A stretch of DNA of 63,130 nucleotides, filler included, from Klebsormidium nitens (lineage: Eukaryota; Plantae; Klebsormidiophyceae), in NCBI GenBank assembly GCA_000708835.1. It is 7 parts of 7 records of this genome, joined end to end, with 100 filler letters (N's around TTAATTAATTAA, not from the genome) between each part and the next. Parts side by side here need not be neighbours in the genome. Positions count along the whole stretch, not along the records: positions 54,376 to 57,237 come from DF237984.1; 6 more parts are not named here. One strand, given 5' to 3'. The notes below the pieces were generated by a model. The model ran no database searches and was not told the origin of the DNA. It saw only the letters and a list, made by a program, of their open reading frames with translations. Both the position numbers and the translations under genes were made by a program. The first letter of the stretch is position 1; the number at the start of each line of letters is the position of its first letter. Shown in pieces: positions 17,404 to 62,328 of this stretch.

Positions 17404-17459
17404 GTTACTCGTCTTAGATAGATGTATGAAAATTACAACTCGCTAAAGCGTGACCACCT

Positions 17460-24578: not shown

Positions 24579-25254
24579 CTGAGAAAGCGATGTGTAACGA
24601 TTACGACTAGTTAAGCCTAACCTCGTTCTCGACAGGATTTCGTTGACCGCGAGTTAGCGAAACGGCGGTGGTTACGTCTTAACGACGCACTGCGTGGCTG
24701 TCTGCAAGATGGCGTAATATCCCGGATGGATCGGCTTCAATGAGCCGATGTCACCGTTCAGGATAAGTTGTGTTCGGCTTTGCCGTTCGATGCAGCCAAG
24801 CTCATCTGTGCGTTCTGCACAGCTTGCGTGGCTGGTCTTGTCAAAGGTAGTGGACAAGAGAGAGCTATACGATTAGCCGCATAATCCACGTTGTATGTAG
24901 AGCTGTATGCTATTGATGCATATCTAGTCAAATCATGTATCGTGACGTGCTGATCTGTCTCGACTTGTGGTGATCCTCATCGCGACAGCGCAACGTGCTC
25001 AACATATGTGGATTCAATTGTCTTATCTCTTGACATGGCTTTCTGATCGTGGATGAGACGTGATCAACCCATATCGAGGGCAGAGACGTTGAGACGTCTT
25101 CTCGACATGGCTCTTGTGATTTCATCAAGCGTAAAGAAGCAAGCGCCTTGCGAGGTGCGAGTCTCGAGACTCCTCGACTGAATATGGAGCCTCNNNNNNN
25201 NNNNNNNNNNNNNTTGACGAATAGGTCCAACGTACACACAGGGAATCCGAGTTT

Positions 25255-29180: not shown

Positions 29181-29893
29181 GCTTGAGTGCTACTAGGTTT
29201 CCGAGTTCTCGAATCTCAACTCCCGAGCTGCACTTTTTGCCGCATGCAACACGTGGACCACATGGCCCACGTGGTCACATTTGATTGGCTCGCAACAAAT
29301 ACCACTGCCAGGCGCAGGCCCATGAACGAGCTGCAGCACCGTTCTCCAAGTTGTCAGCACTGGCGGCGCTAGCTTTGCATATGAGCATATCCCACCTACC
29401 TTAAGTATGCTCTTCTCTAAACTCGCATGGCGCTTCAATTACTAGAAGAAGAGCTTGGTGCCGTTGGTGGTGACTTTGTAGGTGCCTAGCTTTTTTCATA
29501 AATGACAAGTCAAAATATGGTCTGTCGTGAGTTGAGGGGCACTTGAAAGGGGGAGTGTGTTCGGCTGATAAAGAGTTTTTAGTCACATGGAGGTGAGGAG
29601 ATTCTGTCAAAGGGGCCACGTCAATTGTCATTTTTGCTCTTTGCAATGCTTGAATGTCCAGACTCCAGGTCTGCATTTGCTGAATCAGTACACTGCATTA
29701 TGCTCTAATCTACAAATGTTACACATTTCTGCGTGACTATACAATCCTTCCCTTCTTGCACTTCATGGCCATCAGCTGCTCCCCTGTTTGTCTCCCTTCG
29801 TTTGGCACCAGCTTCAAACAGGATCTGGCAGCTTCAGAATGCAGGAGCAACAAACAGAAAGACAGGATCTCATAGCGCTGAAGGGTCTGCAAA

Positions 29894-32800
29894 ATGGGTC
29901 CAATTCTCCTTCTCTGCCAGGCATCACCGCCAGATGGCTCCCATTCATTGGCCCACTCCCTCTGGCGCACTCGCTGGGACACCTTCAAGCGGAAGGCGTT
30001 CCGCAGCGACATGCTTCTCTACTGGACGCTCCTGGGTGTTGCTTTTGGGGCAGTGGTGGGGGGTATGGTGACCTGGCTACACCCGTCGGAGCGAGTGACT
30101 GAGCTCATTGGTCAGTTCTTGGGGCAAAGTCTCGGCTGTACGGAAAGTCTTTGGATCTGGTTGTCATGAGCGTTTGAGTGGATTTTGAGATTGTACTTTA
30201 GTCGGGTGGGCCTCCCTAAACCCAATTAGGGAGGCCCACCGCCATATCAGACTTGAAAAAGAAACATGAGAGAAACATGTTCTGGGAGCAAATTCCTGCG
30301 ATGTATCAAGATGCTCGTCACAACTGGCCATGAGACTTATGCATCGATGATGACTCTAAGAGTGAAAGATGTGTAGAGACTGTTCATACTTATGTACTGC
30401 AACAGAGGTTTAGCAACCTCTCAACTTTGGGGCCTTCGCGATCAGGCAATTTCCAGATATACACAATTGACAACAATGCACTGGCAAACAGTTTCCAAGG
30501 CTTTCTCCATCCTGACCCCAGGTTATCCTGGAGAGCTGCTGATGCGAGCGCTGCGTGAGTTGGTGCTTCCGCTAGTCGCTCTGGCGCTGATGACTGGGGT
30601 GCTCAACCTCCGACACACCACCACAGGGTGAGCGCTCTGGGACCCGTTCCTCAAGTCCCTGTTTGGAACATGCAACTAATGTCCTGTTCTTGCCTGTCTA
30701 ATACATCAATCATCTTGACTTCTGTCAGTCGATAGCCAGTTCATAGAAGACGCCTAGTGGCCAACCATGCGTCGCCCTGATCAGGCTCCAACATAACTCT
30801 TTGAAGCCTGCAACAAAGATTCCGTATGCACGGGCCCGAATGGTAAGACGAGAGTTTTATGGCACTGCGCCAAGCTAAACATGTTGTTCCGTGCGCATTC
30901 ACTTTTCGGATACTATTGAATAGATTCCGTCAAAATCTCTTCAGTGCTTTAGAAGAAGATGTAAGCCAGGCCTCTCCTCCCCTGGGCACCTAATCAGAAA
31001 AACTTTGTCCCTCCACCAATTCAAAGCATGCAAAACAAAACCAATTTCATTCGCCCCTCCTACAAGTCCGGCAGTAACCCAAGCCAGTCTCACAAAAACT
31101 CGCATTTCATATCAATCTACAGCTTCTCACCTTTCGTCGCACTCATTCGGCCTCACAGGAGCAGCCGCATCGCGCAGTGGGCGATGCAGTTCTACCTTCT
31201 GTCCATGCTGCTCGCTGTCGCCCTGGGGATAGGGCTTATTTACACCATCCGTCCTGGCCGGGGTCAGCCCCTCGCCAAGATGGCGCACAAAACCGAGTGT
31301 GGGAATGGGACCGGGAACAGTGTGCAAGGGGGCAGGTAAGCACCCGGGGGCAGTATTTCATTTCGGACGTGGAGCCATGTGTTCGGAAGACAGCACTCAC
31401 AATCAACACCATGCGAAGGAGAGGAAGCTGCATGGAATACTGACGCTGACTCCAAGAAGCCGCCACTTACTGTTGCTCAAATGGAGGGAAGTAGCAACCG
31501 CCGCTGCGTAAAACTCGGAGCCTCGTTGAGGAGTGCTTCCCTACCGTAAAGATGTGTCTCCGGGAGAAGCATTCCCAAAGTCTCTCGAGTCAGTGCTCAA
31601 ACGAGCCGCACATAGTGGTTAAGAAGATATCAGCACTAGAGAATTTTGAGGTTAACGAAGCTTTGTGAACGTTTGAATGTATGGCTCTAACATTCCTTTC
31701 TGAATGTTCAATCTTCGAATGTTGGGTGTTTGACGATCTTCACGGGTAGTTAGCCTATGTTCATCTGCGACTGGAGCCCAACGTGTGATGCGGCAGTGAG
31801 CAAACTCCAGGGCTGTGCAGAAGCTGACGTCACTTTCGCTCATGTTAACGTCACCAGGCCGGCGGCGAGCGGCGACCTGGTGGAGGCGCTGCTCAACATC
31901 GGGCGCGACCTGGTGCCCACCAATATCGTGCAGGCCGCCGCGGACGCCAACTTCTTGGGCGTCATTGCCATCTCCATCTTTTTCGGCTCCGTCCTCGCTT
32001 CCATGGGTATGTTCAAAGCAGGCGTTTTTCGCTTCACAGTATGTCTCGGGTTACACGCTCTCCTGCCCAGTCAAATCATGGAAAGACAATTCGTGTTGTT
32101 GTGGGTACTTGGGAAGACAATTGGGGTAGATTATTGGGCCTCATCCCCATCTTCGTCTTTTCCGCCGTCGTCCTCGCTTATATGAGTATGGTGTGCCAAG
32201 CACTTCCTTTCACGCATCTACGGTGGCATGGAAACAAATTCCAGGGTTCAGGATTTTGAAAGAACTTGGACCCCGAGTCTGTAGTCACCATACTTTTTAG
32301 GGCTTTGTTCTAGGCGTCCAGGAGGGCTTTTTGATCTTCGAACCGGCCAGTTCTTTGCTGTTTCCTCGTTTCAGGATTTTCAAGCCTAAAAAAGATCCTC
32401 GTTCTTTCCTTGATTCTGCCTTTCAGTATAATTGTACTCCTGACCTTATGTCTGTCTGGCCGGTGAATGGGTACGTGTCTCGTGATTTAGGCCTTGGAGG
32501 CTAAGACAACACTGCAACGTGGATGCCATCGCAAGTTCCGCTTGCTTGGTTGTGGTTGCGCCCTTTCGGACGTCTCCAAATCCCAGAAGTTTTCTGCTGC
32601 TCTTTTCGACGATTCATCCCGCCGAAGCCAGAGTCTCGGACCTAGGGTGTGCTCTTGAGCCGGTCGGTCGTCAGCAGCGGCAGATTGGATACGTCAAACA
32701 GCAGCAATTATCGCTCAGATAGGCCAGAGCAGGTTTGTCTCGTTTTTCTTTCCGATTCGGTCGAGGGTTAGCTACGATCGGTTACTGCGATATTCAGGAC

Positions 32801-35800
32801 CATTGCGGACTAACAGTATTAGTTGTCTGTTCTTGCAGGGGAAGAGGCGGAGCCGCTTATTCACAACATTGAGATTGCCAACAAGGCCGTCATTAACATG
32901 GTGAGGGCCCACTCGCAACTCGACCGCTAGGCGTGTTGCCAAGATCTTCTTAAGACAAATTCAAGGCTTGGCCGTGAGCAACTAACCCCTGAGTTACTCG
33001 TCGCTTACAACGTATGCACCGAACTTTGCGGACGTCCATCGACGCACCCACGTCAACGCACCTGTTTGCGCTCTCCAGCCATTTGCAGATCATCGGCGTC
33101 GTCACGAATTGAGAGTCAATCTTCCGCCAGTTCGGCCGGCACGTCTTGCGCAACACTGCGTTCATATGAGCAATTCGTCTTCGCAGTACAGAGTATGATA
33201 CCTCTTACTACCGCTTCCAGTCGAGGGTCGGCCCGCAACCTGCTTCTTCCGACATTCAACCAACCTCATAACGTCTGGGAAAGCAAAGCAGTAAAACGTA
33301 TTTAGATTGACACCACCATCTCTTGCAGATTCTGCACGTGGTCTGGCTTACGCCTATTGGTGTCAGCTCCCTGGTAGCGGGCTCCATCCTGCGCGCCTGC
33401 GACCTGGTGCTGCTGCTTAAGAGCCTGGCCCTCTACGTCATCACCATCCTGACCGGCTTCGGGCTTCATTGTTTCGTTGTTCTGCCCGCATTATTGTACC
33501 TGTATACCCGGAAGGACCCGTTCAAAGCGGCACGGTAGGTCAACCCCAGCTTGAATTGCTGCCGTGTTTTCTTTGGAAAATGACTTGGAAGTTGTGACCA
33601 TAATGTCCGGCTTTGGACTTCATTGCTGCGTCGTTCTGCCTGCGCTTCTCTACCGGTATTCCCGGAAGGACCCGCTTAAAGCGGCAAGGTTGGTCTGCTT
33701 TAACCCTTTCCTCAATTGCCGCCAAGTGGCCAATGAGTTACTTGGACGTCATGATCATTCTGATTGGCTTTGCGCTCCATTGCTTAATCGTCCTGCCCGC
33801 GCGTCTCCCTTGCATTTTCGGAAGGACTCATTTAAAGCGGCACGGTCGTTTTCGCTGCCCTCCTTGCGGTTCTCTTCGGGAAGAGGCTGACAAGCGCACG
33901 GGCGCTGGTTTTACGCGCACCCTTTTGGCTCCATCCTTGATTGTCTTGAAGGCCTTAGTTCGTTTTGCCCGTGTAATGTAGGGATTTCCAATTCGGCTGA
34001 CGCACTCGTATGCTCTTTCTGTGAAAGTTAACCTACTCGAAAGATAGCCCGTACTCAGAAGGGAAGGGGAAGCGTTATGAGTCCGTTCCTAAAGTGTGCT
34101 TTGCCGGCTGCGTATCCACCGCACTTGACGGTTGTGGAGAAGTCCCCTGCAACGGCCGAGCGTGAATTGATCTGCGCTCTTATCTCCGCCAACCTGGTGT
34201 CAAACCGTTTGTGGATTTTGGCGGTCGTTTCTTTCACCTTAGCAGCGGGCTTCAGCACGGCCTTAACCAAGCCCTTGAACCCGAAGGCTGCAATCCTCAA
34301 AATTTAAAATAGTGACTTCTTCCGCTCCTCTGCAGGTCTTCTTCCATGCGTTCGCCGTGAATTACGGCGCGCCTTTAAGCGAGCCCTTGAGTCTGACAGC
34401 TGTAATCACAGAATCCCGAGACCCTGTAGAGCGAAGTCTTTCAGGGGTTCGCAGTTCGCTGTTTCCGGTGTTCGCCCGGAGGGCTTCGATAGCAATCTTA
34501 TCTCCCACCGCTTCTACAGTCCCAGAATCCTTAATGCTCTCAATCCTGAAACCCCAAGATTCTGACGACTCAACTCTCAAGCTTTGAAAACCCTTAGTAT
34601 AGCTTCTGCTATTCTACAGGCCGTAATTCGCCGTGGGCTTCGGCACGGCCCCAATCTGATTGTTGCATCCAACCGCCACATACCCAGAATGTTGAAACCC
34701 TTGTGCTTGAAAGATGCTCGACTTCATAAACGACATCTCCTGCTACTCTGCAGGTCGTTCTTCCCCGCGTTCGCCATGGGCTTCGGCACGGCCTCGAGCG
34801 CGGCCACGATGCCCGTCACCATGCAGTGCGCGGTGGACCACGGCTGCCGCGAGTCCGTTGTCAACTTTGTCATCCCCCTCGGAACCAGCGTCAACAGGTG
34901 CGGGACCGCAAAACCCGAGCAGTTTCAAAGATTCTATGATATCCAATCTTTTTGTTGGGGCTCTTCTTGTCGTGAAGTGCTGCTTGTTGGAGACGCGAAT
35001 TGGTGTTGTCTTCGTGAGGCAGAGTTGCTTAAGTTTTCTCCTCAAAGAGGGGATTCGATCGCGTCTGGAGCAGGCTTGAGTCCATTGAAAGTGCTCTGTC
35101 AGCGAGACTAATGTTTGAGCCACAATACTCTATTTTGCAGAGATGGAGCAGCACTGTACGAAGCGGCGTCGGTCCTCTTCATAGCTCAGGTGCGTGCTGT
35201 CTTCCCTAAGCCGCCAGCTTGCACCCATATTTTTCAGAGGTTTCCCTGCAAGAATGCGTGGAAAGATCGAGTGAGCTTTAAGTTCTGGATGGTTGCGTTT
35301 CTGTTGCACAAATCACCAGGATTGAAAGCTGACTAAGATTGCTTGCGCGCAGCATGACCTTTATTGCAGCCCAAACTTCCTGCTTCGCTGGTTCCCGTCG
35401 TGCTTGAGATTCCAGAGCCTCTCTTGCTGGCCACGGGCTAGACCCCTCAGCAGGCAGGATTGACAGGCACTTTCTGGACGTTGTGTTGATACGAATTTCC
35501 AGACAAAACCTTTGGCCGCCTTCTCTGCGCGAGCAGCGTGGTCTTCCTCTGTTCTTCTTTTGATGGTCTTTTGTGTGCGACACTTTTGCAGGCCCACGGG
35601 ATGAATCTTTCCGCGGGCAGCGTTGTCCTTATCGCGATCACCAGCACCCTGGCAGCGGTCGGGGCGGCGTCGGTGCCAATGTCTGCGCTCGTGACCATGA
35701 TTACGGTTCTCCAGGTAAGAGGCGCAAGATTCCCTCATGAATTCAAGGGCTTGAACATGGGCTTTACTGTTTGTCAAGACTCGTTCTGTGACTACTCAGA

Positions 35801-36558
35801 GAAGGGAAACAAACTCCAAAAGTGCCATTTTTAAACCACCAAATCATGTGTTGAGCTCGAAGTAGAAATGCGAAACGGGAATGGAAGTTTGCTCAGGTTG
35901 GAAGGCGTCGACACGGTTGCGCTGTGTGCGTCGGTGACCATGACTACGGTCATCAAGGCAAGAGCGCAGGACTTGTGGTGTTCGGATATAGGACACGAGT
36001 TCGCTTTTCAGAACTTTCAAAGCTTTCCCTTCGAGCACAGTCAAAAAGAACTAGGTCCTCCTTCATGACACGCTGCATACGCATGCTTCCATTATAAAAA
36101 TAGCAACGAACATTATTGAGGTCAAACATAACCACCAATTGCTTTCGGGATTCGACTCCAAGTCAGAGTGGGCAGGCCGCAGAAAGATCGAACTTGAAAC
36201 TAGTGTCAGTAACTATCCAAGTTTCTCATCCGCTGCTAAGAGCCCATGCACGGTGACCGTGCAGGCTGTGAGCCTGGAGCAGTTCGTGGGCGACGTGTCC
36301 ATTCTCCTGGCCGTTGATTGGTGCCTAGGCATGTTTCGGACGGTCACCAATATCTGGGGCGATAGCGTGGCCGCCCTCTGCGTTGACCACCTTTCGAGGC
36401 AGCATGAAGCTACTGAACATAAGAGAAGGGCGTCCAAAGCAGACGGGATGCCGGAAGAGGAGATAGGGCTAGTGGGTCAGGATTGGGCACCTGAAGGGAT
36501 TGCAAGTCAGAGCGTGTTTCCGCGTCCGCTGTCGCCGATCAGGTGTCTTACAAGGTAG
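29894..36558 (+). CDS. SLC1 / DAACS dicarboxylate-amino acid:cation symporter, multi-exon
   Basis: Exons: ~29894-30110 (LLYWTLLGVAFG), 30522-30627 (YPGELLMRALRELVLPL), ~31160-31335, ~31855-32006 (DLVPTNIVQA..NFLGVI), ~32839-32900, 33329-33534 (VVWLTPIGV), ~34755-34897 (FGTASSAATMP..PLGTSVN), 35141-35189 (RDGAALYEA), 35591-35714, ~36266-36558 (AVDWCLGMFRTVTNIWGD). The start and some exon boundaries are approximate. Confidence 0.9.
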
Positions 36559-38149
36559 AAGAAGCGTTAAGGGCGTTGAAAGCTTGACACGTATTGTCGG
36601 AAGAGTTTTTTCAAAACGAACACTGTATATGTAGATAGGACTTGTGTTGTTGCTGCTTTTGTATTGCCGACTTGCGGCAAAATGGGCTATTGTAACAACA
36701 TTCGTAGGCTAAGTGACTCTATTAAAGGTGCAACCCGGTACCTCTGAAATGGCCTTGAAAAGCCTACACAGTCACGCACGCAATTCGCAATGTACCATGC
36801 CGAGGTTTAAGGATTTGCCAGATAGCATCAACCCTACAGCAGCCATGTCAGCATGGTATTTGTGGTTTTCAAAGCGTGCAGGCAAAATTTTATCGGGTGT
36901 TATCTATTACGCTTGGACTGGCGGATCCCACGAAGTGCAGCTGCAATAATTTCAGCGCGCCCCACTGGTCTGCGTGCGTCGCATCAGTAGATAATACATG
37001 GCATGACTGCCCTACTATTGGAATGGCCGCTTAGCTAGACGGCAAGCACGGCTAGCTGACGAAGGACCGTCCGCGGCCGTTGCATGCATGCTGCAACTTA
37101 TCGTGCATCACGCAATTCGACACGAGTGCACCTCATTATCTAATCAGGTTGACGTATGTCCGCACAAAGACGTAGGCTTCTTCGCTTTTTGGTACGTGAG
37201 CTAGCGCAGAGCATGGGGTCCTGACCCACAACGCGGGAAATCATCTGCCCATGTGACGTGTCCTGTTGTAGCATATTGAACTTAGCTACTGAAACCTCAA
37301 CGCTAGCAACTGGACGTAAAGGGTGCTTTCAACTTGACGTAAAGGGTGTAAGAACGTGGGCGGCCGCCTTCGCTAACTAAACATGGCCGCCTGCCTGCGC
37401 TCAAAGAGTCTGGTCATCTGGCACCCGCCAGTACGACAAGGTTCGGCCGAAGTTTCTAAATGGGCACATGTGATCGTATGCGATCGTTTTCGTCCGTAGG
37501 ATGATTGGTAGGTCAAGTCAACCGTCCATTTGCGACGCCGGGGCCCTGAGACGCCCGCGCATGAATTTGCAATTGTTCGGAAGAAGGCCAGCGTCGACGA
37601 GCATGACGCAAATGCTGTGCAGTTCAGGTGACCTACCTACTTCTAAGCCCAAGCACACTTTACGCCGCGGCCCCAGCTCTGACACTTTCACAGTTGTACC
37701 TTCAAAGTACGTTCGGTGAAGTGCATCCTTTGCGCGCCTTAAGTCCGTCGGATGACCCACCAACCGTTCTTGAACCGTCGGATACCCGAATTGCAACATC
37801 AGGTACCTGGAAGTCATCAAGTCGACTACGTACACTACTAGACTTTCATGAAGTAGGTAGGGCTCAGGAGTGAGGGCTTCCGGATCCTTGCCCTAGACAT
37901 TTTTGCGGAATGGCATCACGGAAATCTCAGGCTCATCAACGCGGCCTCCTACAAATTGGGCCGCCTCCTGCAGCTAGTCACCCTCAACAGCAACAAGGGG
38001 GCACCGTCAGAATCATTGAATCGCAGAATGCTGTATGCAGGTATACGAACCAGAAAGGGTGGACTCCAGCTTTGCGGCATTGTGCTCAGATATGCTCTAG
38101 CTGTTTCTCGCTTCGCTTTAGCCCGCGGATGGCAACGCTCAGTTAGTCT

Positions 38150-42372: not shown

Positions 42373-45270
42373 AAAACCATATGTGTGTAAAGTTTCCAGG
42401 TCTTGGGCCAGCGGGCAAGGATCTTTTTCTTTGCCTAGTCTATCTCCCTCCAGGGCAGTCTTCGTGGTACCATCAAGCTGGAACTTCAGTAGAGGAGACG
42501 TTTGACCAGCTTAGGGAAGAAGTAGGAGAAGCTCTGCAATGTGGAGAAGTCGTGCTTGCAGGAGATTTCAATGCTAGAACGGGGTCTCTTCCTGATTGGT
42601 TGGATTCGGGAGACATTCATGTCCTTGCTCAGACACCAGATGCGGAGTGCCCTAATGAGGTAGAGTGCACAACTCCTAGGATGTCTCAAGATAAAGTGGT
42701 CAATGCGACGGGGCGAGTCCTTCTTGAGTTCTGCAGAACAACAGATTGTAGAATTTTGAACGGGAGAGCGAGAGGAGATAAAGAAGGCAGGGCCACTTGC
42801 TTTTCTGCAAGCGGCGGAAGCAGTCTGGTAGACGTTTTTCTTTGCCCAGCTTCTTTTGTCAAGCATGTAGACATGCTGAGCGTCTCCGAGGAAGTGCCCG
42901 AGTCTGATCATCGACTCGTGATGCTGAGCACTGATCNNNNNNNNNNNNNNNNNNNNNNNNNNNNNNNNNNNNNNNNNNNNNNNNNNNNNNNNNNNNNNNN
43001 NNNNNNNNNNNNNNNNNNNNNNNNNNNNNNNNNNNNNNNNNNNNNNNNNNNNNNNNNNNNNNNNNNNNNNNNNNNNNNNNNNNNNNNNNNNNNNNNNNNN
43101 NNNNNNNNNNNNNNNNNNNNNNNNNNNNNNNNNNNNNNNNNNNNNNNNNNNNNNNNNNNNNNNNNNNNNNNNNNNNNNNNNNNNNNNNNNNNNNNNNNNN
43201 NNNNNNNNNNNNNNNNNNNNNNNNNNNNNNNNNNNNNNNNNNNNNNNNNNNNNNNNNNNNNNNNNNNNNNNNNNNNNNNNNNNNNNNNNNNNNNNNNNNN
43301 NNNNNNNNNNNNNNNNNNNNNNNNNNNNNNNNNNNNNNNNNNNNNNNNNNNNNNNNNNNNNNNNNNNNNNNNNNNNNNNNNNNNNNNNNNNNNNNNNNNN
43401 NNNNNNNNNNNNNNNNNNNNNNNNNNNNNNNNNNNNNNNNNNNNNNNNNNNNNNNACCATGCCGCTAGGGAGCCAAAACTATGAGTGCCGGAATTGGCCC
43501 TACCTGATCCTGCGAACGCCCGAGTGATCAGGGGGCAGGCTATGCTGAAGAGGCAACGGCGAAGCGAACACTGCCAAGAGTCCTTGAGGGAGGTATCCCT
43601 CGTTTCCAGGAGTTGTTGGCATCGTCGGCAAAGCTGCACGCTTTGGCGGAAAGCTCAGCGGCAATGAGTCCTTCGCAAGCAACTGTAATGTCAGAAGAAG
43701 CAATAGAAGTTGCTGCAATTGGGGCGTTTCCAACGCCACAATCTCGAGGAAACTTTGTGACAAGCTGTAGTCCGACCTGGTTTGATGCCGATTGTCGGAC
43801 GGCCCGTAGGAAGTTCTTAGAGGCTTTGAAAGCAGGCGGTCCTTCGCATCTAAGCAGTCAACTGAAGAAGGAGTATCGAAAGGTTGTGCGAAGGACTAAG
43901 CGAGCTTTTAGCAAGTACCGCGCAGCCAGATTGGAAGATCAGATCCTAAACAGTACGGGTCGGTTTTGGAAGCAATTCCGAAAGAAAAGGCAAGGACTAG
44001 GTCTTGTGCATAAGGAAGGTCTAGTCAAGCATTGTCAAAATTTGTATGAGCAGTCGAAGGTAGAGGAGGTCCCTCTCCCAGGTGCAACGCGTGCCTCGGA
44101 AAGTCACTGGCGAAGGATCTCGGCAAGCGAAAGAAAGGAGCGAAGTGCTGGAGGCTCGGATCAGGGAGAGCGAAGTTGAAGCAGCTTTGAAGTGCCTCAA
44201 AAACGGAAGAAGTGCTGATCTGAAAGGCTTTACGGCTGAACTGCTGAAGGCAGGGCAAAAGCAGCTTGTGGCGGGCCTAACCTTAGTCTTTAACCGGGTT
44301 TTCGAAGAAGGCGTGTTTCCGGAGGATTGGAACGAGGGTGTGCTCGTTGCCATTTTCAAGAAAAGAGACCCGTCAGATTATGGCAATTACAGGACGGTGA
44401 CAGTGGGGCCGGTGCTGGGCAAGTTGTTTGCAACTGTCATCAACCGTTCGAAGCCAAATCGTTCGAACGATGTCATCAGCCTTCGAAGATCCATCGAGCA
44501 TTTCTGCGGGGTCTTCTGAGACTTCGGAAATCGACGCTGTCAAAGGCGGTTCTGGGAGAGTTCGGTCGGTTTCCCTTGCTCCTTGATCGCTGGGCGCAAG
44601 TCTTCAAATTCGTGAACCGGATAGCGAGCCTCCCCCAGGATCGGCTGGCCCGTTTGGCACTTGAAGAGTCGAGGGAAATGTGGGCAGCGAACAAGGGCGG
44701 GTGGTACGCAAGGATCATAGAAAAAGCTTGCGAACTCGTGTCAGCAAACGAAATAGTAAGGGTGTTCTAGACCTAGCTTTGCTTCGGGAAAGGTCTGAGA
44801 TGGCATATATGCAGGATCTGAGGGAGGGGTATGGCCGAAAATTCTGCACGTACTTCGGTAAAGTCAAGATTGGCTACTCCTTCGAGCCCTTCATAGATCA
44901 AATAGGCGTCTCCGCGTGCTTTGCCACCCTAGCCAGATTTAGAGTAGGAGCACACAAGCTCGCTGTTGAAACAGGGAGTTGGCAAGGGATTGCTCGCGAT
45001 GAGCGATATTGCCAGATCTGTAAGTCAGGAGCAATAGAGACGGAGGATCATTTTGTATATGATTGCTCGGGTTATAGTGAAATTCGAAGGACCTTTCAGT
45101 TCCTATTCGAGGGCAGAGGAGATAGAGACTTGAAAGCTTTTCTTAATTTGCAGGACACATATGCGGTAGGTAGATTCGTACATCTTGCTTTAGATAAGCG
45201 AGCTACCGTAATAGGACAATCGTCGACTTAGCCGATCACGGCTCCGAACCGACGCTAATCAAACAATAAC
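42373..45270 (+). mobile_element. Non-LTR retrotransposon (LINE) ORF2: APE endonuclease, RT with large internal deletion, C-terminal CCHC
   Basis: GDFNARTG, NG...GSSLVD, SDH (APE); WFDADC, WNEGVLVAIFKK.D..DYGNYRTVTV (RT start) joined at ~44460 directly to post-RT HRAFLRGLLRLRKST..LGEFG; CQIC...ETEDHFVYDC; short aataac-rich tail near 45262. Confidence 0.9.
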
Positions 45271-48456: not shown

Positions 48457-49008
48457 TTAAGATTTAAACTCGAATGATTCATTTAAGATTCTATATTTTT
48501 TAACTTTCTTATTGCTTGTTAAAATCCCACCAGTCTTATAACAATCCGATGGTCTATCGAAACACCAATATAGTCTGTAAAAATAGTTTATAATATCCTC
48601 CCTTGATTCATATTGGTCGTTTCTTGGTTTTAATCTTCGACGATACTCATCAAAAACTATCGAAACAAGTTTCTGACACGGTTTCATATCTTTTTTTGGA
48701 TAAATGCCGTCATAGATAAATTCTCTCACAATCCTAGCACGTGCTTTCATGACCCGTAAAAGTTCGACTATACTTCTAAAACTTTTAAATGTAACTTTGT
48801 CGCTGCAAAGATGTTGTTTGATGTCAATATAGTCTTTTGGTGTTAAATCGATGTGGGGGTTGCCATTCTCACAGAACTCAATTCCATATCGTTGAAGAAT
48901 GTCTTGAGCCGGATCAGCTTTTTGCTCATTTTCCAGCTTCATTCTCACAATCTTTTCGTACAAATCCAATGGAAGGGCTTGCTCAACCTGCTTGAATGTT
49001 AAACTCAT
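48457..49008 (-). CDS. AT-rich intronless virus-like hypothetical protein (paralogous N-terminus with 49076-49648)
   Basis: 183-aa ATG ORF; N-terminus MSLTFKQVEQALPLDLYEKI. Lys/Ile/Asn-rich, with base composition far more AT-rich than the host genes. Confidence 0.7.
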   Translation of the reverse strand: MSLTFKQVEQALPLDLYEKIVRMKLENEQKADPAQDILQRYGIEFCENGNPHIDLTPKDYIDIKQHLCSDKVTFKSFRSIVELLRVMKARARIVREFIYDGIYPKKDMKPCQKLVSIVFDEYRRRLKPRNDQYESREDIINYFYRLYWCFDRPSDCYKTGGILTSNKKVKKYRILNESFEFKS

Positions 49009-49697
49009 TTTCTATGATCAGATAAAAGAATAATATAATATAAGCGAACAGACAGCCCGACTCGCGGTCATCGGTCTACATTTTTTTATCGACATAAGGA
49101 GCCCGGGTTGGTCTCATTCTTAAATATCTTTTCAAAGCTGTGAACATTGGAGTTCCTTCTTGTATAGAAAAATTATAATCAGACTTTTCAGAGTATATAT
49201 TAGTCAAAATCACATATCTGTGGGCTAGTCGAATTTGAGGATGAAATCTGTTTTCATATGCTGAAATATTTGTGAAAAAATCTGGTATTGAGTTGAATTC
49301 GTCGTCCGTTAGATTTTTCATTATTTTGGAATGCCACCCTCGACGGAATTGCAATCTTTCGAACAGGGCATGTTTTACCGCATACTGAAATTCCCTATAC
49401 TTATTTTCGTTATTATTCTTCATTTTCTCAAGAACTTTCAACAAATCAGTAAAGCACTCCATAGTCATAGCCTTGTGATCAATAAATTGTATCATTCTAA
49501 CTTTATCGAACCCAGTTATCATTGATGCATCTTTTTCAGACATCACCGTCATTTGGTTTATTCGTTCAGACTCTAGCACCTTTTTTGCAATCATTTCATA
49601 GACGTCATGTGGTAATGCCTTTTTTACTTGGTCAAGTGTTAACGCCATTTTCTATTATTAGATAAAATAAAAAAAAGGATATAAGCGAACAGACAAG
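49009..49697 (-). promoter_or_regulatory. Repeated promoter-like motif upstream of both AT-rich ORFs (copies at ~49009-49055 and ~49649-49697)
   Basis: Minus strand: gtctgttcgcttatat, AT-rich spacer, ttttatct.at.atagaaaATG precedes both ATGs. Confidence 0.6.
49076..49648 (-). CDS. AT-rich intronless virus-like hypothetical protein
   Basis: 190-aa ATG ORF; N-terminus MALTLDQVKKALPHDVYEMI. Shares its upstream motif with 48457-49008. Confidence 0.7.
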   Translation of the reverse strand: MALTLDQVKKALPHDVYEMIAKKVLESERINQMTVMSEKDASMITGFDKVRMIQFIDHKAMTMECFTDLLKVLEKMKNNNENKYREFQYAVKHALFERLQFRRGWHSKIMKNLTDDEFNSIPDFFTNISAYENRFHPQIRLAHRYVILTNIYSEKSDYNFSIQEGTPMFTALKRYLRMRPTRAPYVDKKM

Positions 49698-49700
49698 ACC

Positions 49701-50022
49701 CTAACGAACTGCATTATCGCCTTCCAGTCCAAATCGAAAATTGAGCTTCATGATCATGTCGCGATGATATGCCTTATACGGGAATCCGTCTGAATTCACT
49801 ATGTGGTGCTTCCTCGCAAAGTCCCGCAAGTCGGTTGAAATCCTATCTCTCTGCGATCTCGTGAGTCCTGCCTTGTTTTTGTATGCGACGACAAGCTTGC
49901 GGAACGTCGCTATCTCTTCTTTAACATTTAGCTCTTGCTCCTCTTCCTCGCCTTCTTCCTCATCTTCTTCCTCTTCCTCTTCCTCTTCTTCTTCCTCTTC
50001 TTCGACCTCCCTCTTGAACCTT
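49701..50022 (-). CDS. 3' part of a third co-oriented ORF with a poly-Glu tract, truncated by contig end
   Basis: Open frame RFKREVEEEEEEEEEEEEDEEEGEEEEQELNVKEEIATFRKL...GDNAVR* ending at TAG 49703-49701. Confidence 0.55.
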
Positions 50023-54375: not shown

Positions 54376-54718
54376 TCTAGCGTTCCTACTCATCCTGCTC
54401 GACTGCATGCTCTCGGAGCATATTCCGGTCAGCTGGCTGTCGGTCATCGTACTAGATTGCATAGTGGTGTTCGCAATGTGCGGAGAGATCGCCGTTCCGC
54501 CGTGGGTCTATGCTTCGAGGGTCCTATGGGTAGGCGGGTGCTACGCCATAGAGCTGATGAGGGGCCCGAACGACGAGATCTTCAGGTGCGGAGGGGCGGC
54601 ATCGGTACTTTTCGCCCTGGCGCTCTCCGTCGCGACGCTCCGCCTCCACACCCCGGAGCAGAAGCCCCCGGTGCCGATAGAGGTCGTCGTCGTGGATGAA
54701 GCAGTATTAGAACCGTAG
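54376..54718 (+). CDS. Small hydrophobic membrane protein, probably 5'-truncated by contig end
   Basis: The frame is open from the contig edge (LAFLLILLDCMLSEH...) with several hydrophobic segments. Its stop codon is 1 nt from the stop of the convergent ORF. Confidence 0.5.
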
Positions 54719-54719
54719 A

Positions 54720-55068
54720 CTAGTCGAAGACGTCGAACAACATAGACGCTCCCGTCGTAGCGGCACACGCTTTTGGATTGGCCCAGCAGAAACTGATCTT
54801 TTTGCCTTGATGGTAACCGAGACCACCGCATATGAGGAGTGAGAACATCGCGACAATCAGAGTTATGGTCAGCTTCATCATCATATTTCCTTTGACGCGT
54901 TGCGTGTCTGGGTCCACTTTTCTGGATGGCGTGATCGCATACGTGATGAAAGTGATGACGAGTGCAAAGAAGATGCCGATACCGGTGCAGACATACACCG
55001 TCGTGTAGTTTACGGATTCTGTCGATCATCTGCTCTCCCAGGCTGCCAAGACCGCCCTGTCTATCCAT
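54720..55068 (-). CDS. Small two-TM virus-like protein, apparent frameshift near 55020
   Basis: Two hydrophobic helices and a C-terminal WANPKACAATTGASMLFDVFD. The ATG at 55068 is in a different frame from the hydrophobic body (54998-54720). Confidence 0.5.
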
Positions 55069-55094
55069 GATTCATACATACACAGAAAATGTAC

Positions 55095-56729
55095 CTATCT
55101 TCCGGTCCTGAACAATTCATGATCCAGCATCGTCCGTGCTGTGGCGCTTGCGGTGGCGCTAGCGGGAACGGGGCTGCTGGGCTGCGCGTTGCCTTCGAGA
55201 TACCTGAGCACCTGAGGCATGTTCGGCCTGACGTGGCTCGACGGCTGAGTGCACAGCCATGCGGTCTTTATCATGCGCCGAACCTCTGCCTTGTCGTAAC
55301 CATTCTCCATGAGAAATGGATCCATGATGCCAAAGTACCCTCCCTCTTCTATCAGCGGCCTCGACCATGCCACCAAGCTCTCCTCTCCCGGCCTTCTCGT
55401 GCCGTCGACCGGGTACCGGCCGGTCACTATCTCCAATAGCACCACGCCGAAGCTGTAAGTGTCCGACTCCACCGTGAGTCTTCCGGTGTTGGCATAAGCG
55501 GGATCCAAGTACCCGAAAGTGCCTATCACGCGGGTGCTGACGTGCGTGTTCACGTAGGAGTCCTCCCTCAGTTTCGAGATGCCGAAATCGGCGACCCTCG
55601 CGTCCATGTTCGCGTCCATCAAGATATTGGACGACTTGATGTCCCGATGTATGATGGCAGGACGGCAGTCTTCGTGAAGGTAAGCGAGCCCCCTCGCAGC
55701 GCCCACGGCCGCCCTCAACCGCCCCGCCCAGTCGAGGCTCTTGGGTGCATGGATGCGGTCGGAAAGCGTGCCGTTCGGCATGAACTGGAGGACGAGCAAA
55801 CGCTTGTCTTCTTCCGAGGCGTAGCCCAAGAACGAGACGAGGTGCTTGTGATGGACCCTCGACACCACCTCCAGCTCCGACTGAAACTCACGTTCCCCGA
55901 TCTCGTCGGGCCCCTGCACGAGCGAAAACTTTATCGCGACCGTCGTCCCGTTCTGCAGCTCTCCTCTGTAGACCTTGCCAAACCCCCCGGCGCCCAAGAG
56001 GCGCGACTCATGAAAGCCGTCCGTGGCTCGAGAGAGTTCGTCGAAAGAAAACTCCGTCTTCGAGCGCACCGACGGGACGCTCTGACGTCGTGGGGGAGAC
56101 AGGTCCGGAAACCCGAGCTTTGCAAGAGGGAGGGCGGGGCCACGCTGCGTCCAGAGTCCGCTCTCTCGCCTCCCTCGAGTCTTCATCAGACACTTCAGGC
56201 CCAGCAACATCGCCACCAGGAGGACCAAGACGCCCAGCACACCCCCTGCGACGATCCCGATCGTCTTTCCGGTATCACCGCCGCCACTCGCCGGGGCGAT
56301 GGCCGGGGGGAAAGGAATTACTGCCGCCGTACTCCGGGGTACTTCGACGGTCGGTGTGGGGAGCGGGGTCGTCGTGGGCGCGAGAGGCGCCAGCGTGACC
56401 AGCGGCCTTGGCGTCGACGCGAGCGGCGCGGGAGTGAATGGGAGCGGCGCGGGAGTGAGAGGGCTCAGCGTGGGCTGAACGGTCCTCGACGGGACAGCGG
56501 TCTGAGTAGGCACGGGAGTCGAAGGCAGGCTGGTCGGGGCGGTAGGTTGTGGAGGGAGAGTCGCGGGCGAGGTCGAAGGGACCGGAACAGGCACGGGTAC
56601 GAGCGTGGACGCCACGGGTGGAACGGTGGCGTTGGGCTGCGACGTGATTGCCGGGGTAGGAGAGGGGCCGGACGTGGCATTCCCGCCCACCGGAGAAAGC
56701 GGCGTCAATGTGCTGTTTGCAGTTTCCAT
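55095..56729 (-). CDS. PERK-type (proline-rich extracellular, single TM) RLK/Pelle receptor-like kinase, intronless
   Basis: 544-aa uninterrupted ORF: P/T-rich N-terminus, TM IGIVAGGVLGVLVLLVAMLLGL, then FSFDELSRATDGF, LGAGGFGKVY, VAIK, HRDIKSSNIL, VADFG, VIGTFGYLDPAY, DTYSFGVVLLE. Confidence 0.93.
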   Translation of the reverse strand: METANSTLTPLSPVGGNATSGPSPTPAITSQPNATVPPVASTLVPVPVPVPSTSPATLPPQPTAPTSLPSTPVPTQTAVPSRTVQPTLSPLTPAPLPFTPAPLASTPRPLVTLAPLAPTTTPLPTPTVEVPRSTAAVIPFPPAIAPASGGGDTGKTIGIVAGGVLGVLVLLVAMLLGLKCLMKTRGRRESGLWTQRGPALPLAKLGFPDLSPPRRQSVPSVRSKTEFSFDELSRATDGFHESRLLGAGGFGKVYRGELQNGTTVAIKFSLVQGPDEIGEREFQSELEVVSRVHHKHLVSFLGYASEEDKRLLVLQFMPNGTLSDRIHAPKSLDWAGRLRAAVGAARGLAYLHEDCRPAIIHRDIKSSNILMDANMDARVADFGISKLREDSYVNTHVSTRVIGTFGYLDPAYANTGRLTVESDTYSFGVVLLEIVTGRYPVDGTRRPGEESLVAWSRPLIEEGGYFGIMDPFLMENGYDKAEVRRMIKTAWLCTQPSSHVRPNMPQVLRYLEGNAQPSSPVPASATASATARTMLDHELFRTGR

Positions 56730-56973
56730 CCTGGTCTACGTTACGCCTCGAAAAGATCCTGGGTTTTGATGCGTAGCGAAGGAATCCTCCTAAGGGTCTG
56801 GCGTGCCTTCAGTCGTCTTCGTCACCTTCCGGGACGAAAGGCGGCACTCGTCTTCTCCGAGATGTCCCTTAGCTTTCCCGGGGGAGCTCGCTTCGAGTAT
56901 AAGGAAGTACCATGTCTCTAATGCGCAAGTTCGGCCTTGGTCTTTTCAGGATTCGTGTCTAGTAAGATATGAT

Positions 56974-57237
56974 ATGGACATCGACCGTGGGGGTTTTATA
57001 TACTCTGGCAGACCAGTGGGCTCTCCAATCACCAAAGTTGGGTTCACCACCCGTCGGGATCCTGAGGCCTACATCAAGTTGCGTTACGCGGGCATCGTAC
57101 AGTTGGAGAACCTGATGGCTGTGACCAACGCCCCGAACGCGGAACGCCTTTGTCATCACATACTCAAGCCATTCCGCTATCAGTCCTTCCAATCAAAGGA
57201 GCTTTTCTACAATGCTCCACCACCCCACGAAATCCAG
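56974..57237 (+). CDS. T5orf172 / GIY-YIG-related domain protein, truncated by contig end
   Basis: GFIY...KVGFT...NAERLCHHILK..R....ELF matches the T5orf172-type pattern common in large DNA viruses. Confidence 0.7.
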
Positions 57238-57385: not shown

Positions 57386-59362
57386 GTGAATCCCGTCCTA
57401 CCGATCAGCCAGATCGTTACAACTTCTTTGCTTAGAGGCCAAGAAGTTTCCGCACAGCACGCTGTGTACGGCTGTTTAGGACTACCACTGAGATGGAGCT
57501 CGCGGGAACACATCTTTGTCCCTTCGTCGCCGCCTTCGCAACGTACCTTTCTTATCAAAAGTGATCAATCCTTACAGTGTCTTTCTCCGGACTCAACCGA
57601 CTGTTTTGCATCTAACATAATCGACAAATACGCCACGAGGCTGCAGAATCCAAGCTTGCAGGGGACCGATGACCTCACTCTCGCTGAGTTTGCAACGTGG
57701 TACGAGCCGTCGTCTTCGTTTTCTGCGCCGCCTGAAGATACGAACGACGACCAACTTCCTGAAGTCCAAACAGACTCTCCAGAAGGTAAGCGTTCCAGTG
57801 GTCGAGGGTCGAGAATTTATCGGAAAAGACGCAAGTCTAAGATCCTTCACATTGTCGGTTACAAACTAGCTGATAATTCGGAGCTGTTTTACCGGGAAAG
57901 GCTACTCTTGTTCCACCCTTGGTCTTTTCCTGTCGATGACATTGTCCTTCTTAGCGAAAAGGAAGATGAGATTCTTCTATCGGGGAACAGTAGTTTTGAA
58001 GATCGCTACAAACAAGTCGAACGCGCGGTGCTAGAAAAAATGACTGCTTATGAGTATAAAGCCGGTGTCGACTGGGATTCCGTCGAACGGCAGGCAGAAG
58101 CGTGGGCAGCAGAAGATGCCGAACATCTAGCTGCTGTGTTTGAAGACCTTGAATCGCGCGGAATTGTGGTGGAACCGGATTTTCAGCAGCATCCGTCGAT
58201 AATTTCTGATGATCCGCCGGAATCTGCCATTCCGCCGGAATTCCGGTGCGTTCCGGACTTCGAACCGGGCGGAGGTGCTTCAGCTATCGAAAAGCTTCCG
58301 ACTGCGCAGTATCTGATACCTGACGAAGAATTCCGGGCGGAAATGCAGATGCTAACTCTGGCACAGCGAGCCTACGTCTACCACATGCTGCGAAGTTTGA
58401 AGTTCCCATCTAATCGTCAATTTGTAGAATTTCTTACAGGTGGCGCCGGAACCGGAAAGAGTCTTGTTGTCCGATGCGCCACGCAACTAATCGTGCGTAC
58501 TTTCTCTACAGTAATCGGCGATGATCCTGTGTCTCTTAAGCTCTTACTCACAGCATTCACGGGGAGCGCTGCCTTCAACGTAGATGGTATAACGATTCAC
58601 TCGGCTTTTAAAATCCGCATTTATAAAAAGCTTGCTGAATACACAAAACTCTCTGGCGAAGACAAAGCGCTGTTGCGTGATCTTTACGAACATCTGAAAG
58701 GGCATGCAGTAGACGAAATCTCTCTGACGGGCGCTATACTTTTTCAAACTATCAGTTCTCGATTAGGGGAGATTTTTATGAATTCGGAAGTTTTCGGGGG
58801 CCTTCCAACGTTACTGACGGGAGATTTGTTTCAGTTAAAATCTTTGTGGGACAGTTATGTTTTTGAGGGAATCCAGAAGAAAGGCGTTGTAATCAGCAAC
58901 ATTTGGGAAGAAAACGTACGAATGTTCGAACTCACAGAAATTATGCGGCAGCGAGAAGCGCTTGTCTTTGCAGAAGCACTCAATCGATTACGTACAGGTG
59001 CTCACACATCGGCCGACTTGGCTCTGTTTCAGACTCGCGTCTTCGATCGCCTCCATCTGCCCTCGACTTACTCGACTTTTGACAAACACATTTTCGGGAC
59101 TCATAAAAAACGAGATGAGCACAACCTTCTTGTTTTCAACGACACAGTCGGGAGCGGTTTGACGCTGCTCACGCGAGATACTCTTCTCTCTCTAAATCTC
59201 ACCTCGCAGGACAGATCTCATTTTCTTTCGAGAGCTCGAGATCTTCCGGACACCGAAACCGCAACTTTATATTGGGAACTCCGGTTGAAAGTCGGTTTGC
59301 TGGTTGAAGTTACGTGTAACGTAGACGTTCCGGATGGGCTTTATAATGGAGCTACAGTGTGA
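57386..59362 (+). mobile_element. Helitron-type RepHel C-terminal half (PIF1-like SF1 helicase), truncated
   Basis: EVSAQHAVY..LGLPL..SSR..FV, GGAGTGKS, TAFTGSAAFNVDGITIHSAF, DEIS, GDLFQL, ELTEIMRQ, DGLYNGA followed by an abrupt stop. The HUH Rep domain is not in the contig. Confidence 0.82.
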
Positions 59363-59868: not shown

Positions 59869-62328
59869 CATATACTCCGCCTCTACCGTCGAGACCGCCA
59901 CCGCCGGTTGAAGACGGCTCGACCAACTCACTGCTCCCCTGAACATCAAGAAGACGTACCCCGTCGTAAACGCTTTGTGTCGACGTCCCCCGCATAGTCG
60001 GCGTCGCAAAACGCTTTAAAGACCTCGCCGCTCCCCCCAAAGGTCATTCCGGCTTCCGCCGTCCCCGCCAAGTAGCGCACCACCCCGAGCGCCGCCGCCC
60101 AATGCGCCTCCGTTGGCGCGCTCGTGTAGCGCGCCAATGAACCCACGGCGTGAGCGATGTCGGGCCGCGTGCACACGCTCAAGTACAACAAGCTTCCAAT
60201 GAGCTCGCTATAGTGGAATCTCGCCGTGTCGAGCGGCTCACCCTCTCGTGTCAACTTCTTCCCCGCCCCAAGGGGGACCGAGCGCGCCCTTGCGCCCGCC
60301 AACCCGTGCCGCCCAAGAAGCTCCCCCGTGAGCTTCTTTTGTGTGAGCTTCAACGTACGCGCCACCCGGTCGCGCGCCAACTCCATCCCGAGGAAGTAGG
60401 TCGCCTCCCCCAAGTCGCGCACGTCGTACTTCTCCGCCAAGTGCGCCTTCACCTTCGCAATCCGCTCCGCCCCTCGGGCCGCGACGAGAATGTCGTCCAC
60501 CCACACAATGAGGTAAACCCGCTCCCCGTCCACCACTCCCGAAAAGAGCGCCGCGTCCGCCGAGGACGCCACGAACTCAAAGTTCCCGAGCTCCTCCTCC
60601 AACCGCGTGTACCACGCACGCGGCGCTTGGCGCAACCCGTACAAGGTGCGCTTGAGGTGGCAAACCACGTTGGGCCCGCCTTGCTCGTACCCCTCCGGTT
60701 GCTTCTTGTGAGGAACGCCGTCTTGACGTCCAATTGGTGCAACTCCAAGTCGCGCTCCGCAAAAACCGCTAGGAGCGCCCGCAAAGTCGTGTGCTTGCTG
60801 ACCGGGGCGTAGACTTCCTCGAAGTCAATTCCTTGCTTTTGCAAGTACCCTTTCGCCACTACCCGAGACTTGTACCGCTCCACGTTCCCAGGCACATCCC
60901 GCTTAATCTTGTAAACCCACTTCATGGGAACCGGCTTCACCCCCTCCGGTTTTTTGGCAAGCTCCCACAGACCGTTCTCCAACAAGGACCGCATCTCCTC
61001 GTCCATGGACTTCCGCCAAAGCATCGCTTTTTCGCTTAATCGCCGGTTGCACCACCGAAAGCTTGCTATAGTCGTCAAGGAAAGTGGCCAAGTACCTACT
61101 CCCCCCCTTTGACGTCACCGGCATGGGCCCGCACACGTCCATGTGCACGAGCTCTAGGGGTTCTTTGCTATCTTTGGAGTCCGACTCTTTGGGGGAGGGC
61201 TCACGAGTTTGCTTTCCGATGATGCAAGGCTCACACACCGAGGTTCTTTTGCTCCAGAATGCCTCCGCTTTGACCCCCACACCCCGGACCGAGTCCCCCT
61301 CAACCATCTTGGCTAGGCTTTCGTACCCGGCGTGCCCCAATCTCCGGTGCCACAACACCGGGCTCTCGGCTTCCCTCACGAGCAAGCAAGTATCTTCCCA
61401 CGTTGTCTTCGGTTGACAAACAACGGGCATGCCCTCCGCATTCTTCTCCGCCCGAAGCACAACCTCTCCATCCATGGAAACCTCGCACACCTTCCCATGG
61501 AACACAACCTCGGCTCCTACCGCGGTGGCTTTCTTGACAGAGAAGAGATTCTCCGCCACACCGGGAACATAGGCAACCTTACGGAGAAGGATGACTTGCT
61601 CACCTTCCGGCGTCTCGCATCGCAACTCCACCGTGCCCACCCCGGCTACTTCAAGGAACCCCTTGTTCCCAAACTTGATTGCGCGAGTCCCCGGCTGAAG
61701 CATCTCCAACGTTGAGAACGAGCTCTTGACCCCCGTCATGTGTTGGCTAGCCCCCGTGTCAACAATCCACCGTCCGGTCTCCGCCCCTTCCCCGGCTACA
61801 AAGGCAACCCCTTGCCGGCCCCCGGTTTCCCCCTTCTTTGGGCACTCCCTCTTGAAATGATCCGGGCTACCGCATATGTAGCACATCTTTCCCGACTTGG
61901 GCTTCTCCGGCTCACGCGACCCGGACCGGCACTCTCTCTCAAAGTGCCCCAACTTACCACACTTGTGGCAAGCCATGGAAGCCTTTCCCGGGCCACCTTG
62001 CCCTTGCCCTTGCCGGCAAAGTTGCCACCCTTAGCCGCGTAGGCCACCGCCAAGCCCGAGGCCCCGCTATCTTGCTCCCCATGAAGCCCCTGCCTTTGCT
62101 CAAACACTTGCAATGTCGGAAGAAGCTCTTCCACCTTGCCAACCTCCTCCTTGGTGGTAGCCAACACCGTTACTACCCCCTCAAACTGGCTTGACAACCC
62201 GGCAAACACGCTAAAGGAGAGATCATCCGGCTTCATGTCCGAGCCGGCGGCTAGCAAATCCCGGTAAAGGTCGTTTGCAGGATAAGATCCATTCAGAGAC
62301 CGCCACCTGTCGTAGGTCGGAACCTTGG
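59869..62328 (-). mobile_element. Ty1/Copia LTR retrotransposon internal region, decayed by deletions
   Basis: Gag (AGLSSQFEGVVTVL), two CCHC knuckles (CHKCGKLGHFEREC, CYICGSPDHFKREC), protease WIVDTGASQHMT, LWHRRLGH, integrase start VHMDVCGP..FLDDYS fused to RT (KWVYKIK, GIDFEEVYAPV, QLDVKTAFL, YGLRQAPRAW, WVDDIL), RNase H CDADYAGD..STVEAEY. Gene order is Copia-type. Confidence 0.93.

Follow-up and report, generated by a model that had tools for sequence, protein, structure and literature searches.

Large DNA viruses capture genes from their hosts, and viruses tend to retain those host genes whose products act on pathways that hold the virus back; EsV-1 reportedly carries histidine kinases. 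Genomes of giant viruses put together from metagenomes (GVMAGs) encode MAPK-like and histidine kinases, and the word 'receptor' is absent from the accessible part of that text (PMC13524828). Plant PERKs are receptor kinases defined, in the available portion of PMC4769139, by Ser-Pro repeats, the lack of a signal peptide, a transmembrane (TM) segment and a kinase domain; accessible sections of two further papers connect them with wall damage and with the regulation, whether positive or negative, of reactive oxygen species (ROS), and report introns in all peanut PERKs (PMC10868138, PMC12864506). In the alga Klebsormidium flaccidum, contigs with Phycodnaviridae-like core genes, most of them without a host junction, represent several distinct NCLDV (nucleocytoplasmic large DNA virus) insertions, with DNA polymerases 40–92% similar, according to the accessible text of PMC5294986; partial texts describe methylated viral genes (PMC12344493), endogenisation (PMC11244446) and an EVE/DUF3339 horizontal gene transfer island (PMC7060721) in K. 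nitens. Here we describe an intronless PERK-like receptor kinase gene in 63,130 nucleotides of K. nitens DNA (assembly GCA_000708835.1; hereafter the window), in which separate contigs are strung together with N spacers; positions 54376–57237, which hold the gene, are one contig of 2,862 bp (DF237984.1). Our analysis gives good support to the view that mobile, virus-like DNA captured a host PERK-like mRNA, and we put at roughly 0.6 the probability that the captor was a large DNA virus infecting Klebsormidium and that the contig is now an endogenised fragment of it. Host-gene capture by large DNA viruses is known, and a receptor kinase as its cargo would be new: we found no report of a virus with a streptophyte receptor-like kinase in the open-access literature (subscription papers were not covered), and Klebsormidium is unmentioned in the accessible part of 10.1101/2025.04.19.649669.

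The kinase open reading frame (ORF; 56729..55095, minus strand) is unbroken and encodes 544 amino acids without introns, as the first-pass annotation of this DNA had stated. The protein matches Pfam PK_Tyr_Ser-Thr (E=5e-39), and its closest PDB sequences are the receptor kinases SymRK, BAK1, BRI1 and FERONIA (E about 1e-69 to 1e-66), followed by IRAK4. A Pro/Thr-rich ectodomain (residues 1–155; 26% P, 18% T) precedes a single TM segment at 157–175, the only hydrophobic segment in a hydropathy scan, and a kinase domain at about 226–515 is followed by a short tail of 29 residues. This layout of Pro-rich N-terminus, TM segment and C-terminal kinase is that of PERKs, and the hydropathy scan found no N-terminal hydrophobic stretch that would mark a signal peptide, no dedicated signal-peptide predictor being run. 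The Ser-Pro3-5 extensin repeats are absent, with 0 SPPP in the contig kinase and in the K. nitens protein KFL_002570190 and 4–14 in four of the named PERKs checked, and we therefore call the protein PERK-like and not a formal PERK. It is an RLK/Pelle kinase that would work like a PERK and lacks the extensin repeats of the formal class. The catalytic motifs GxGxxG (246), VAIK (264), HRD (361) and DFG (381) are present and the kinase is of the RD type. The claim that all catalytic motifs are intact thus stands for these four and fails at subdomain VIII, where APE is replaced by DPA: DPAY is found in the contig kinase and in 9 of its 10 clade relatives, and DPTY in the tenth, P0005. The Glu of this subdomain is also missing from 11 other plant kinases among 104 scored. 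A bacterial origin was rejected, the kinase being RLK/Pelle, as was a chance ORF or assembly artefact, since the frame is kept in relatives and one contig from sequencing run X1 spans the locus.

A protein search, in which 7,986 candidates were scored and the best 120 listed, returned ten clade relatives (P0001-5, 7, 8 and 27, and the cluster members P0121 and P0122), all of them on ENA, JGI or Logan contigs of 6,267–127,683 bp. The larger contigs measure 127,683 bp (P0005), 78,655 bp (P0121), 71,674 bp (P0008), 58,267 bp (P0027), 55,886 bp (P0007), 49,089 bp (P0001) and 22,908 bp (P0002). Kinase-domain identity to the contig protein is 69–98% in nine of the ten; P0027 is more distant (overall span 44–98%). 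Among the 120 best matches listed, kinase identity does not exceed 56% for any named plant or algal kinase and no clade member comes from a named proteome; the exact contig protein was absent from the collection searched. From the full-length single-ORF calls on contigs too long to be transcripts, we infer that the relatives are intronless as well. On this sequence evidence the kinase is a member of a family and not a lone retrocopy. One relative, P0005 on the 127,683-bp JGI contig, reads QRN in place of HRD and GTFR in place of GTFG, and this copy may be inactive or decaying.

In a tree of 37 rows, the contig kinase and nine relatives formed a clade (96/99). Ten rows (P0011, 12, 20, 22, 24, 36, 90, 109, 114 and 121), which were long-branch outgroups and near-duplicates, were removed for a 27-row maximum-likelihood tree; P0006 and P0122 were in neither tree. 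The smaller tree recovers the clade at 97/96 and places K. nitens KFL_002570190 (GAQ85851.1) as its sister at 97/86; the two then join Closterium at 98/98. The kinase domains of the contig protein and KFL_002570190 are identical at 156 of 290 positions, and the branch path from their split measures 1.21 changes per site for the contig kinase compared with 0.18 for the K. nitens protein. A second character agrees with the Klebsormidium placement of the tree. The C-terminal motif T-x3/4-E-x-F-x-GR, a pattern composed after the sequences were viewed, occurs in 11 of 122 proteins; ten of these are the clade members, and the eleventh is the K. nitens protein. After the kinase domain, tails are 25–49 residues long in the clade and 221 in KFL_002570190. 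The 14-residue terminal motif survived the loss of about 190 tail residues, which makes it a likely docking site.

A T5orf172-type (GIY-YIG-like) ORF starts at 56974 on the plus strand, divergent from the kinase and 244 nt away, as had been noted earlier, and runs off the contig end, leaving the 5' 88 codons (56974..57237). The fragment stays under the Pfam cut-off (E=0.032 and 0.008; 17.1 bits, gathering score 20), and the fold of a 95%-identical relative, P0123, agrees with the assignment. The P0123 model (pLDDT 82) matches viral T5orf172 proteins: 63 viral matches were found in BFVD at E<=0.001 and 11–25% identity, with Bodo saltans virus T5orf172 at the top, phage proteins included, and NCLDV entries making up most of the named rows; there was no fold match in the PDB. 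The protein is about 140 residues long in relatives, and no longer relatives were found in the search. A weak Pfam match is seen in 7 of 8 aligned members, and two distant members pass the cut-off. The 14 close relatives, or 13 once fragments of this locus type are set aside, are all on environmental contigs. A profile search of 1.84 billion representatives gave 23 matches, and among the ten of these that were looked up the sole named member is K. nitens KFL_002980050, a distant relative. Two of the ten kinase contigs (22,908 and 127,683 bp) coincide in size with T5orf172 contigs; random draws produced one such coincidence in 0.15% of cases and two in 0 of 200,000, which indicates that two further contigs bear both the kinase and the T5orf172 gene.

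Comparison with P0001 speaks to selection on the kinase, the two proteins being identical at 285 of 290 positions in the kinase domain and 134 of 154 in the ectodomain. Among the nucleotide differences displayed, 15 of 15 are silent in the kinase domain compared with 7 of 17 in codons 144–221, counts that rest on 40 of 322 difference rows; by this pattern the kinase domain is under purifying selection. Further copies were found in sequencing runs. Over 12.9 kb, three host contigs agree with run X1 without a single difference, at depths of 18.8–20.1. One 3,218-bp record of the same run spans the kinase contig at a depth of 29.6 and departs from it by 7 substitutions and 5 gap letters; 4 of the 5 kinase differences are ectodomain replacements. 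The run also holds a second kinase copy (105 differences in 531 nt, 80% identity, depth 7.9) and a second T5orf172 copy (38 differences in 265 nt, 86%, depth 10.8). These differences suggest that at least two copies are nearly identical and that diverged ones exist in addition, with the limits that X1 is possibly the source of the window and not independent of it, and that contig depth is not a copy number. Pieces at 91–98% identity were present in three other runs, one of them labelled freshwater metagenome. No RNA run was listed among those containing the kinase contig, a blank that we count neither way; run X9 shares 8% of the contig's words and did not match the host gene at 85%, and it is likewise given no weight. 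The X1 records of the main and the diverged T5orf172 copy (records 1 and 7) both stop three letters beyond the contig end at 57237, which suggests that a shared repeat makes up the 3' half of this gene and interrupts the assembly.

The contig is intronless, gene-dense and rich in ORFans. Its four genes, two of them without a family, are separated by 1, 26 and 244 nt and make 90.5% of it coding, compared with 27% exon for a host gene on another contig. The GC content is 59%, the CpG ratio of 1.08 has no discriminating value against 0.59–1.2 elsewhere, and a repeat search returned only chance-level pairs. The divergent intergenic region (56730..56973; 244 nt, 52% GC) contains no TATA box and no AAAATTGA motif. 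On the other side of the kinase lie two small TM ORFs. TM ORF1 (54376..54718, plus strand) encodes 103 residues from an ATG at 54407, or may be open at the 5' end of the contig; it is colinear and ungapped in run X6 at 91% identity, and has no match in Pfam, PHROG or Atlas. TM ORF2 (55068..54720, minus strand; two TM segments) is frameshifted in the contig copy, which is 349 nt long and whose ATG, at 55068, does not share a reading frame with the two TM segments (55025..54720); contigs of runs X1 and X6 have 5 additional letters at 55012–55014, which gives an ORF of 354 nt. Only weak sub-threshold matches and no family were found for it, and by Pfam it is not DUF3339/EVE. One 770-bp record bridges both TM ORFs without a gap. 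Because of the frameshift, the spacers of 26 and 1 nt reported in the first-pass annotation are valid for the longer form of TM ORF2 only. Its comparison with intron-rich host genes holds for one gene, at 29241–36738 (plus strand), with 10 GT..AG introns of 243–1219 nt confirmed by two RNA runs (X17 and X20) that agree with it exactly; host genes lie on separate contigs and are not neighbours of the kinase. Judged by eye, this host gene has the look of a dicarboxylate/amino-acid symporter.

Taken together, the intronless clade on large contigs, the long stem and the Klebsormidium-type tail motif, along with the T5orf172 partner on two other contigs, the extra diverged copies and the lack of a poly(A) remnant, argue for capture of a host mRNA by mobile DNA. 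A giant virus as the carrier is suggested by the anatomy of the contig, its context and the published NCLDV insertions in Klebsormidium. The part of the earlier claim that concerns mobile, virus-like DNA is thus well supported, and its giant-virus part is met by several observations that weigh against it. No NCLDV hallmark gene was found on the 2.9-kb contig. The proposed search of giant-virus collections came back empty, scans of viral_contigs (IMG/VR) returning no RLK/Pelle kinase and no close T5orf172 relative; the IMG/VR kinases found are ten distant loci at 25–45% over short stretches, and a further locus, L011, on a GVMAG contig that is AT-rich, encodes a NEK-like kinase and was rejected as not RLK/Pelle. 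Scans of JGI metagenomes and prokaryote genomes with clade-specific patterns were also empty, which is no evidence of absence since these collections seem to be without the relatives' contigs. The flanking T5orf172-type ORF gave a fold that matches NCLDV proteins and phage proteins alike, T5orf172 is common in phages and bacteria too, and its neighbours in Atlas are bacterial and Uroviricota (phage) clusters, so the domain signals mobile DNA and not NCLDVs specifically. A coincidence in size means the same contig, not adjacency, and there is none for 8 of the 10 kinase contigs. Intronless PERKs are reported for cotton in the accessible text of PMC6479967, and intron loss alone is therefore not diagnostic. 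The kinase phylogeny placed the clade with K. nitens in the smaller tree; in the 37-row tree support for the Klebsormidium link is weak, at 54/91, and a long Sphagnum branch takes part in it, and an approximately unbiased (AU) test did not reject a position of the clade outside all named PERKs (p=0.256). The tree set includes one Klebsormidium RLK, of about 91–94 counted in K. nitens in the available part of PMC10868138; together with the AU result, this means that the tree alone is no proof of the donor. The limits given above for the tail-motif pattern, the silent-site counts and run X1 belong on the same side.

If a large DNA virus was the captor, events may have unfolded as follows. A virus of Klebsormidium-type algae would have acquired a reverse-transcribed, spliced PERK-like mRNA, and the gene would then have evolved about 6–7 times faster than its host counterpart, shed most of a 221-residue cytoplasmic tail while retaining the T-x3/4-E-x-F-x-GR terminus, and fixed the change from APE to DPA, the kinase being retained under selection across many genotypes. 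The product made during infection would be a membrane-anchored RD kinase whose outer part is rich in Pro and Thr and probably glycosylated; placed in the plasma membrane, it would compete with the host PERK or circumvent it. As a result, wall damage would fail to trigger the stress/ROS response, or the wall would be loosened for virus exit; this damping step is drawn from PERK biology. Given a viral origin, we rate interference with host wall signalling just short of even odds. The copy in the K. nitens genome is probably a passenger beginning to drift.

Among the alternatives, the one that survives best, though we think it unlikely, is that the kinase is cargo of other mobile DNA, such as a Polinton-like virus (PLV), a D5-primase/recombinase element or a giant transposon, which took up a host mRNA and travels both inside Klebsormidium genomes and from one of them to another. 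Several copies in one run at 80–99.6% identity fit such spread, as do the lack of an IMG/VR match, the occurrence of T5orf172 beyond NCLDVs and the D5-primase elements elsewhere in the window (D5_N E=3e-9). A complete receptor kinase under strong selection is uncommon as transposon cargo, and the named fold neighbours of P0123 are mostly NCLDV entries. The carrier contigs, in which host flanks are possible, also reach 49–128 kb, compared with 14–40 kb for PLVs in the accessible text of PMC12220804.

Less probable again is a host retrogene family, in which an old intronless Klebsormidium PERK duplicate has become a fast-diverged but ordinary algal receptor and the metagenome contigs are host DNA. 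The packed intronless ORFans and the T5orf172 protein next to the kinase, with a coding share far above that of the host gene, speak against it, as do the recurrence of the T5orf172 partner in two more cases, the lack of a clade member in named algal proteomes among the 120 best matches listed, and a stem rate about 6–7 times that of the host. On the other hand, the closest named relative is a K. nitens PERK-like protein, that genome has the large RLK complement noted above, purifying selection fits a host gene equally well, and there is the cotton precedent for intronless PERKs. Marks of retroposition are missing, with no poly(A) remnant (the longest A-run is 5 in 300 nt), the next ORF 26 nt past the stop and no notable repeats; an old retrogene could have shed its poly(A) and target-site duplication.

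Weakest is the proposal, which we regard as quite improbable, that the contig belongs to a large DNA virus that persists unintegrated in the culture, free or as an episome: it has in its favour the stand-alone contig without a host junction, the depth of 29.6 (other copies 7.9 and 10.8), which differs from the 18.8–20.1 of host contigs, and the close relatives in unrelated runs, and it is opposed by the presence in a single run of at least three different genotypes, whose depths all lie within about twofold of the host's, by a frameshift in the contig copy that is absent from X1 and X6, and by the same argument as made for the K. flaccidum insertions in the accessible part of PMC5294986. Where the first-pass annotation had left the choice between an endogenised and a co-sequenced virus, an endogenous piece fits better than a lytic co-sequenced one, because depth stays within twofold of that of host contigs.

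Several other elements occur in the window. D5-like primase/helicase ORFs lie at 11568–13910 and 21634–24600 (both minus strand; D5_N E=3e-9, DUF5906 weak), with related pieces near 3000–3800. Near them are an ORF at 15336–15788, which by its motif we take to have the look of a tyrosine-recombinase C-terminus, and a weak DUF5759 match at 16927–17442; this region is possibly a Polinton-like or other viral-type element. Three packed intronless ORFs at 48457–50022 (minus strand), at a contig end, have about 38% GC and no Pfam match at E<=0.01, and are possibly another viral fragment. A PIF1-like helicase (58040–59362, plus strand; E=5e-19) on a separate 2.4-kb contig is probably a Helitron-type piece. 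Degenerate Copia-type and LINE-type retroelement ORFs were recognised by eye at 59946–62236 (minus strand) and 42373–45231 (plus strand). Long intronless ORFs at 6939–10786 (plus strand), of which 6942–8738 has no Pfam match, contain Cys clusters and a DNAC motif, presumably resembling KDZ transposases. An intronless ORF at 1893–2309 (plus strand) has, by eye, the look of a bacterial glyoxalase/bleomycin-resistance fold.

Returning to capture by a large DNA virus, we offer as a tentative generalisation, somewhat more likely wrong than right, that a lineage of large DNA viruses of streptophyte algae carries a functional host-derived RLK as a conserved, trimmed PERK mimic, retained for so long that its versions in many viral genotypes have diverged to 44–98% identity, and that this mimic rewires cell-wall-damage signalling. 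If true, it would suggest that the algae related to land plants use PERK/wall-integrity signalling against viruses, and would be evidence that PERK-type signalling had a part in antiviral defence before the move of plants onto land. It would also be a natural probe for a receptor family with poorly known ligands and partners, and the kinase and its T5orf172 partner could be used as markers for recovering undescribed Klebsormidium viruses from metagenomes.

Compared with known systems, the contig kinase shares with plant PERKs and K. nitens KFL_002570190 a Pro-rich N-terminus without a hydrophobic stretch, a single TM segment and an RD-type kinase, and with KFL_002570190 also the terminal motif and an ectodomain that is rich in Pro and Thr and free of SPPP. 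It differs from KFL_002570190 in its tail of 29 residues rather than 221, from land-plant PERKs in lacking Ser-Pro3-5 repeats, and from plant PERKs generally in its lack of introns, the change from APE to DPA, the long stem branch and the virus-like neighbourhood. The neighbour resembles T5orf172/MUG113 proteins (PF10544, PF13455) in predicted fold and in the conserved G-x-x-Y, K-x-G and two Glu, while its subfamily is divergent, mostly under the Pfam cut-off, with its only named member from K. nitens. Like the NCLDV insertions of K. flaccidum/nitens, the locus is gene-dense, intronless and multi-copy, in diverged segments mostly without host junctions; unlike them, it has no core gene linked to it, and a captured receptor kinase is unmentioned in the accessible parts of the papers describing them (PMC5294986, PMC12344493, PMC7060721). 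As with other signalling genes of giant viruses, it would be a host-type kinase on a large DNA virus, proposed to interfere with host pathways. Unlike the MAPK-like and histidine kinases of giant viruses, which are not RLK/Pelle, it is a complete streptophyte receptor that crosses the membrane once and includes its ectodomain and TM segment.

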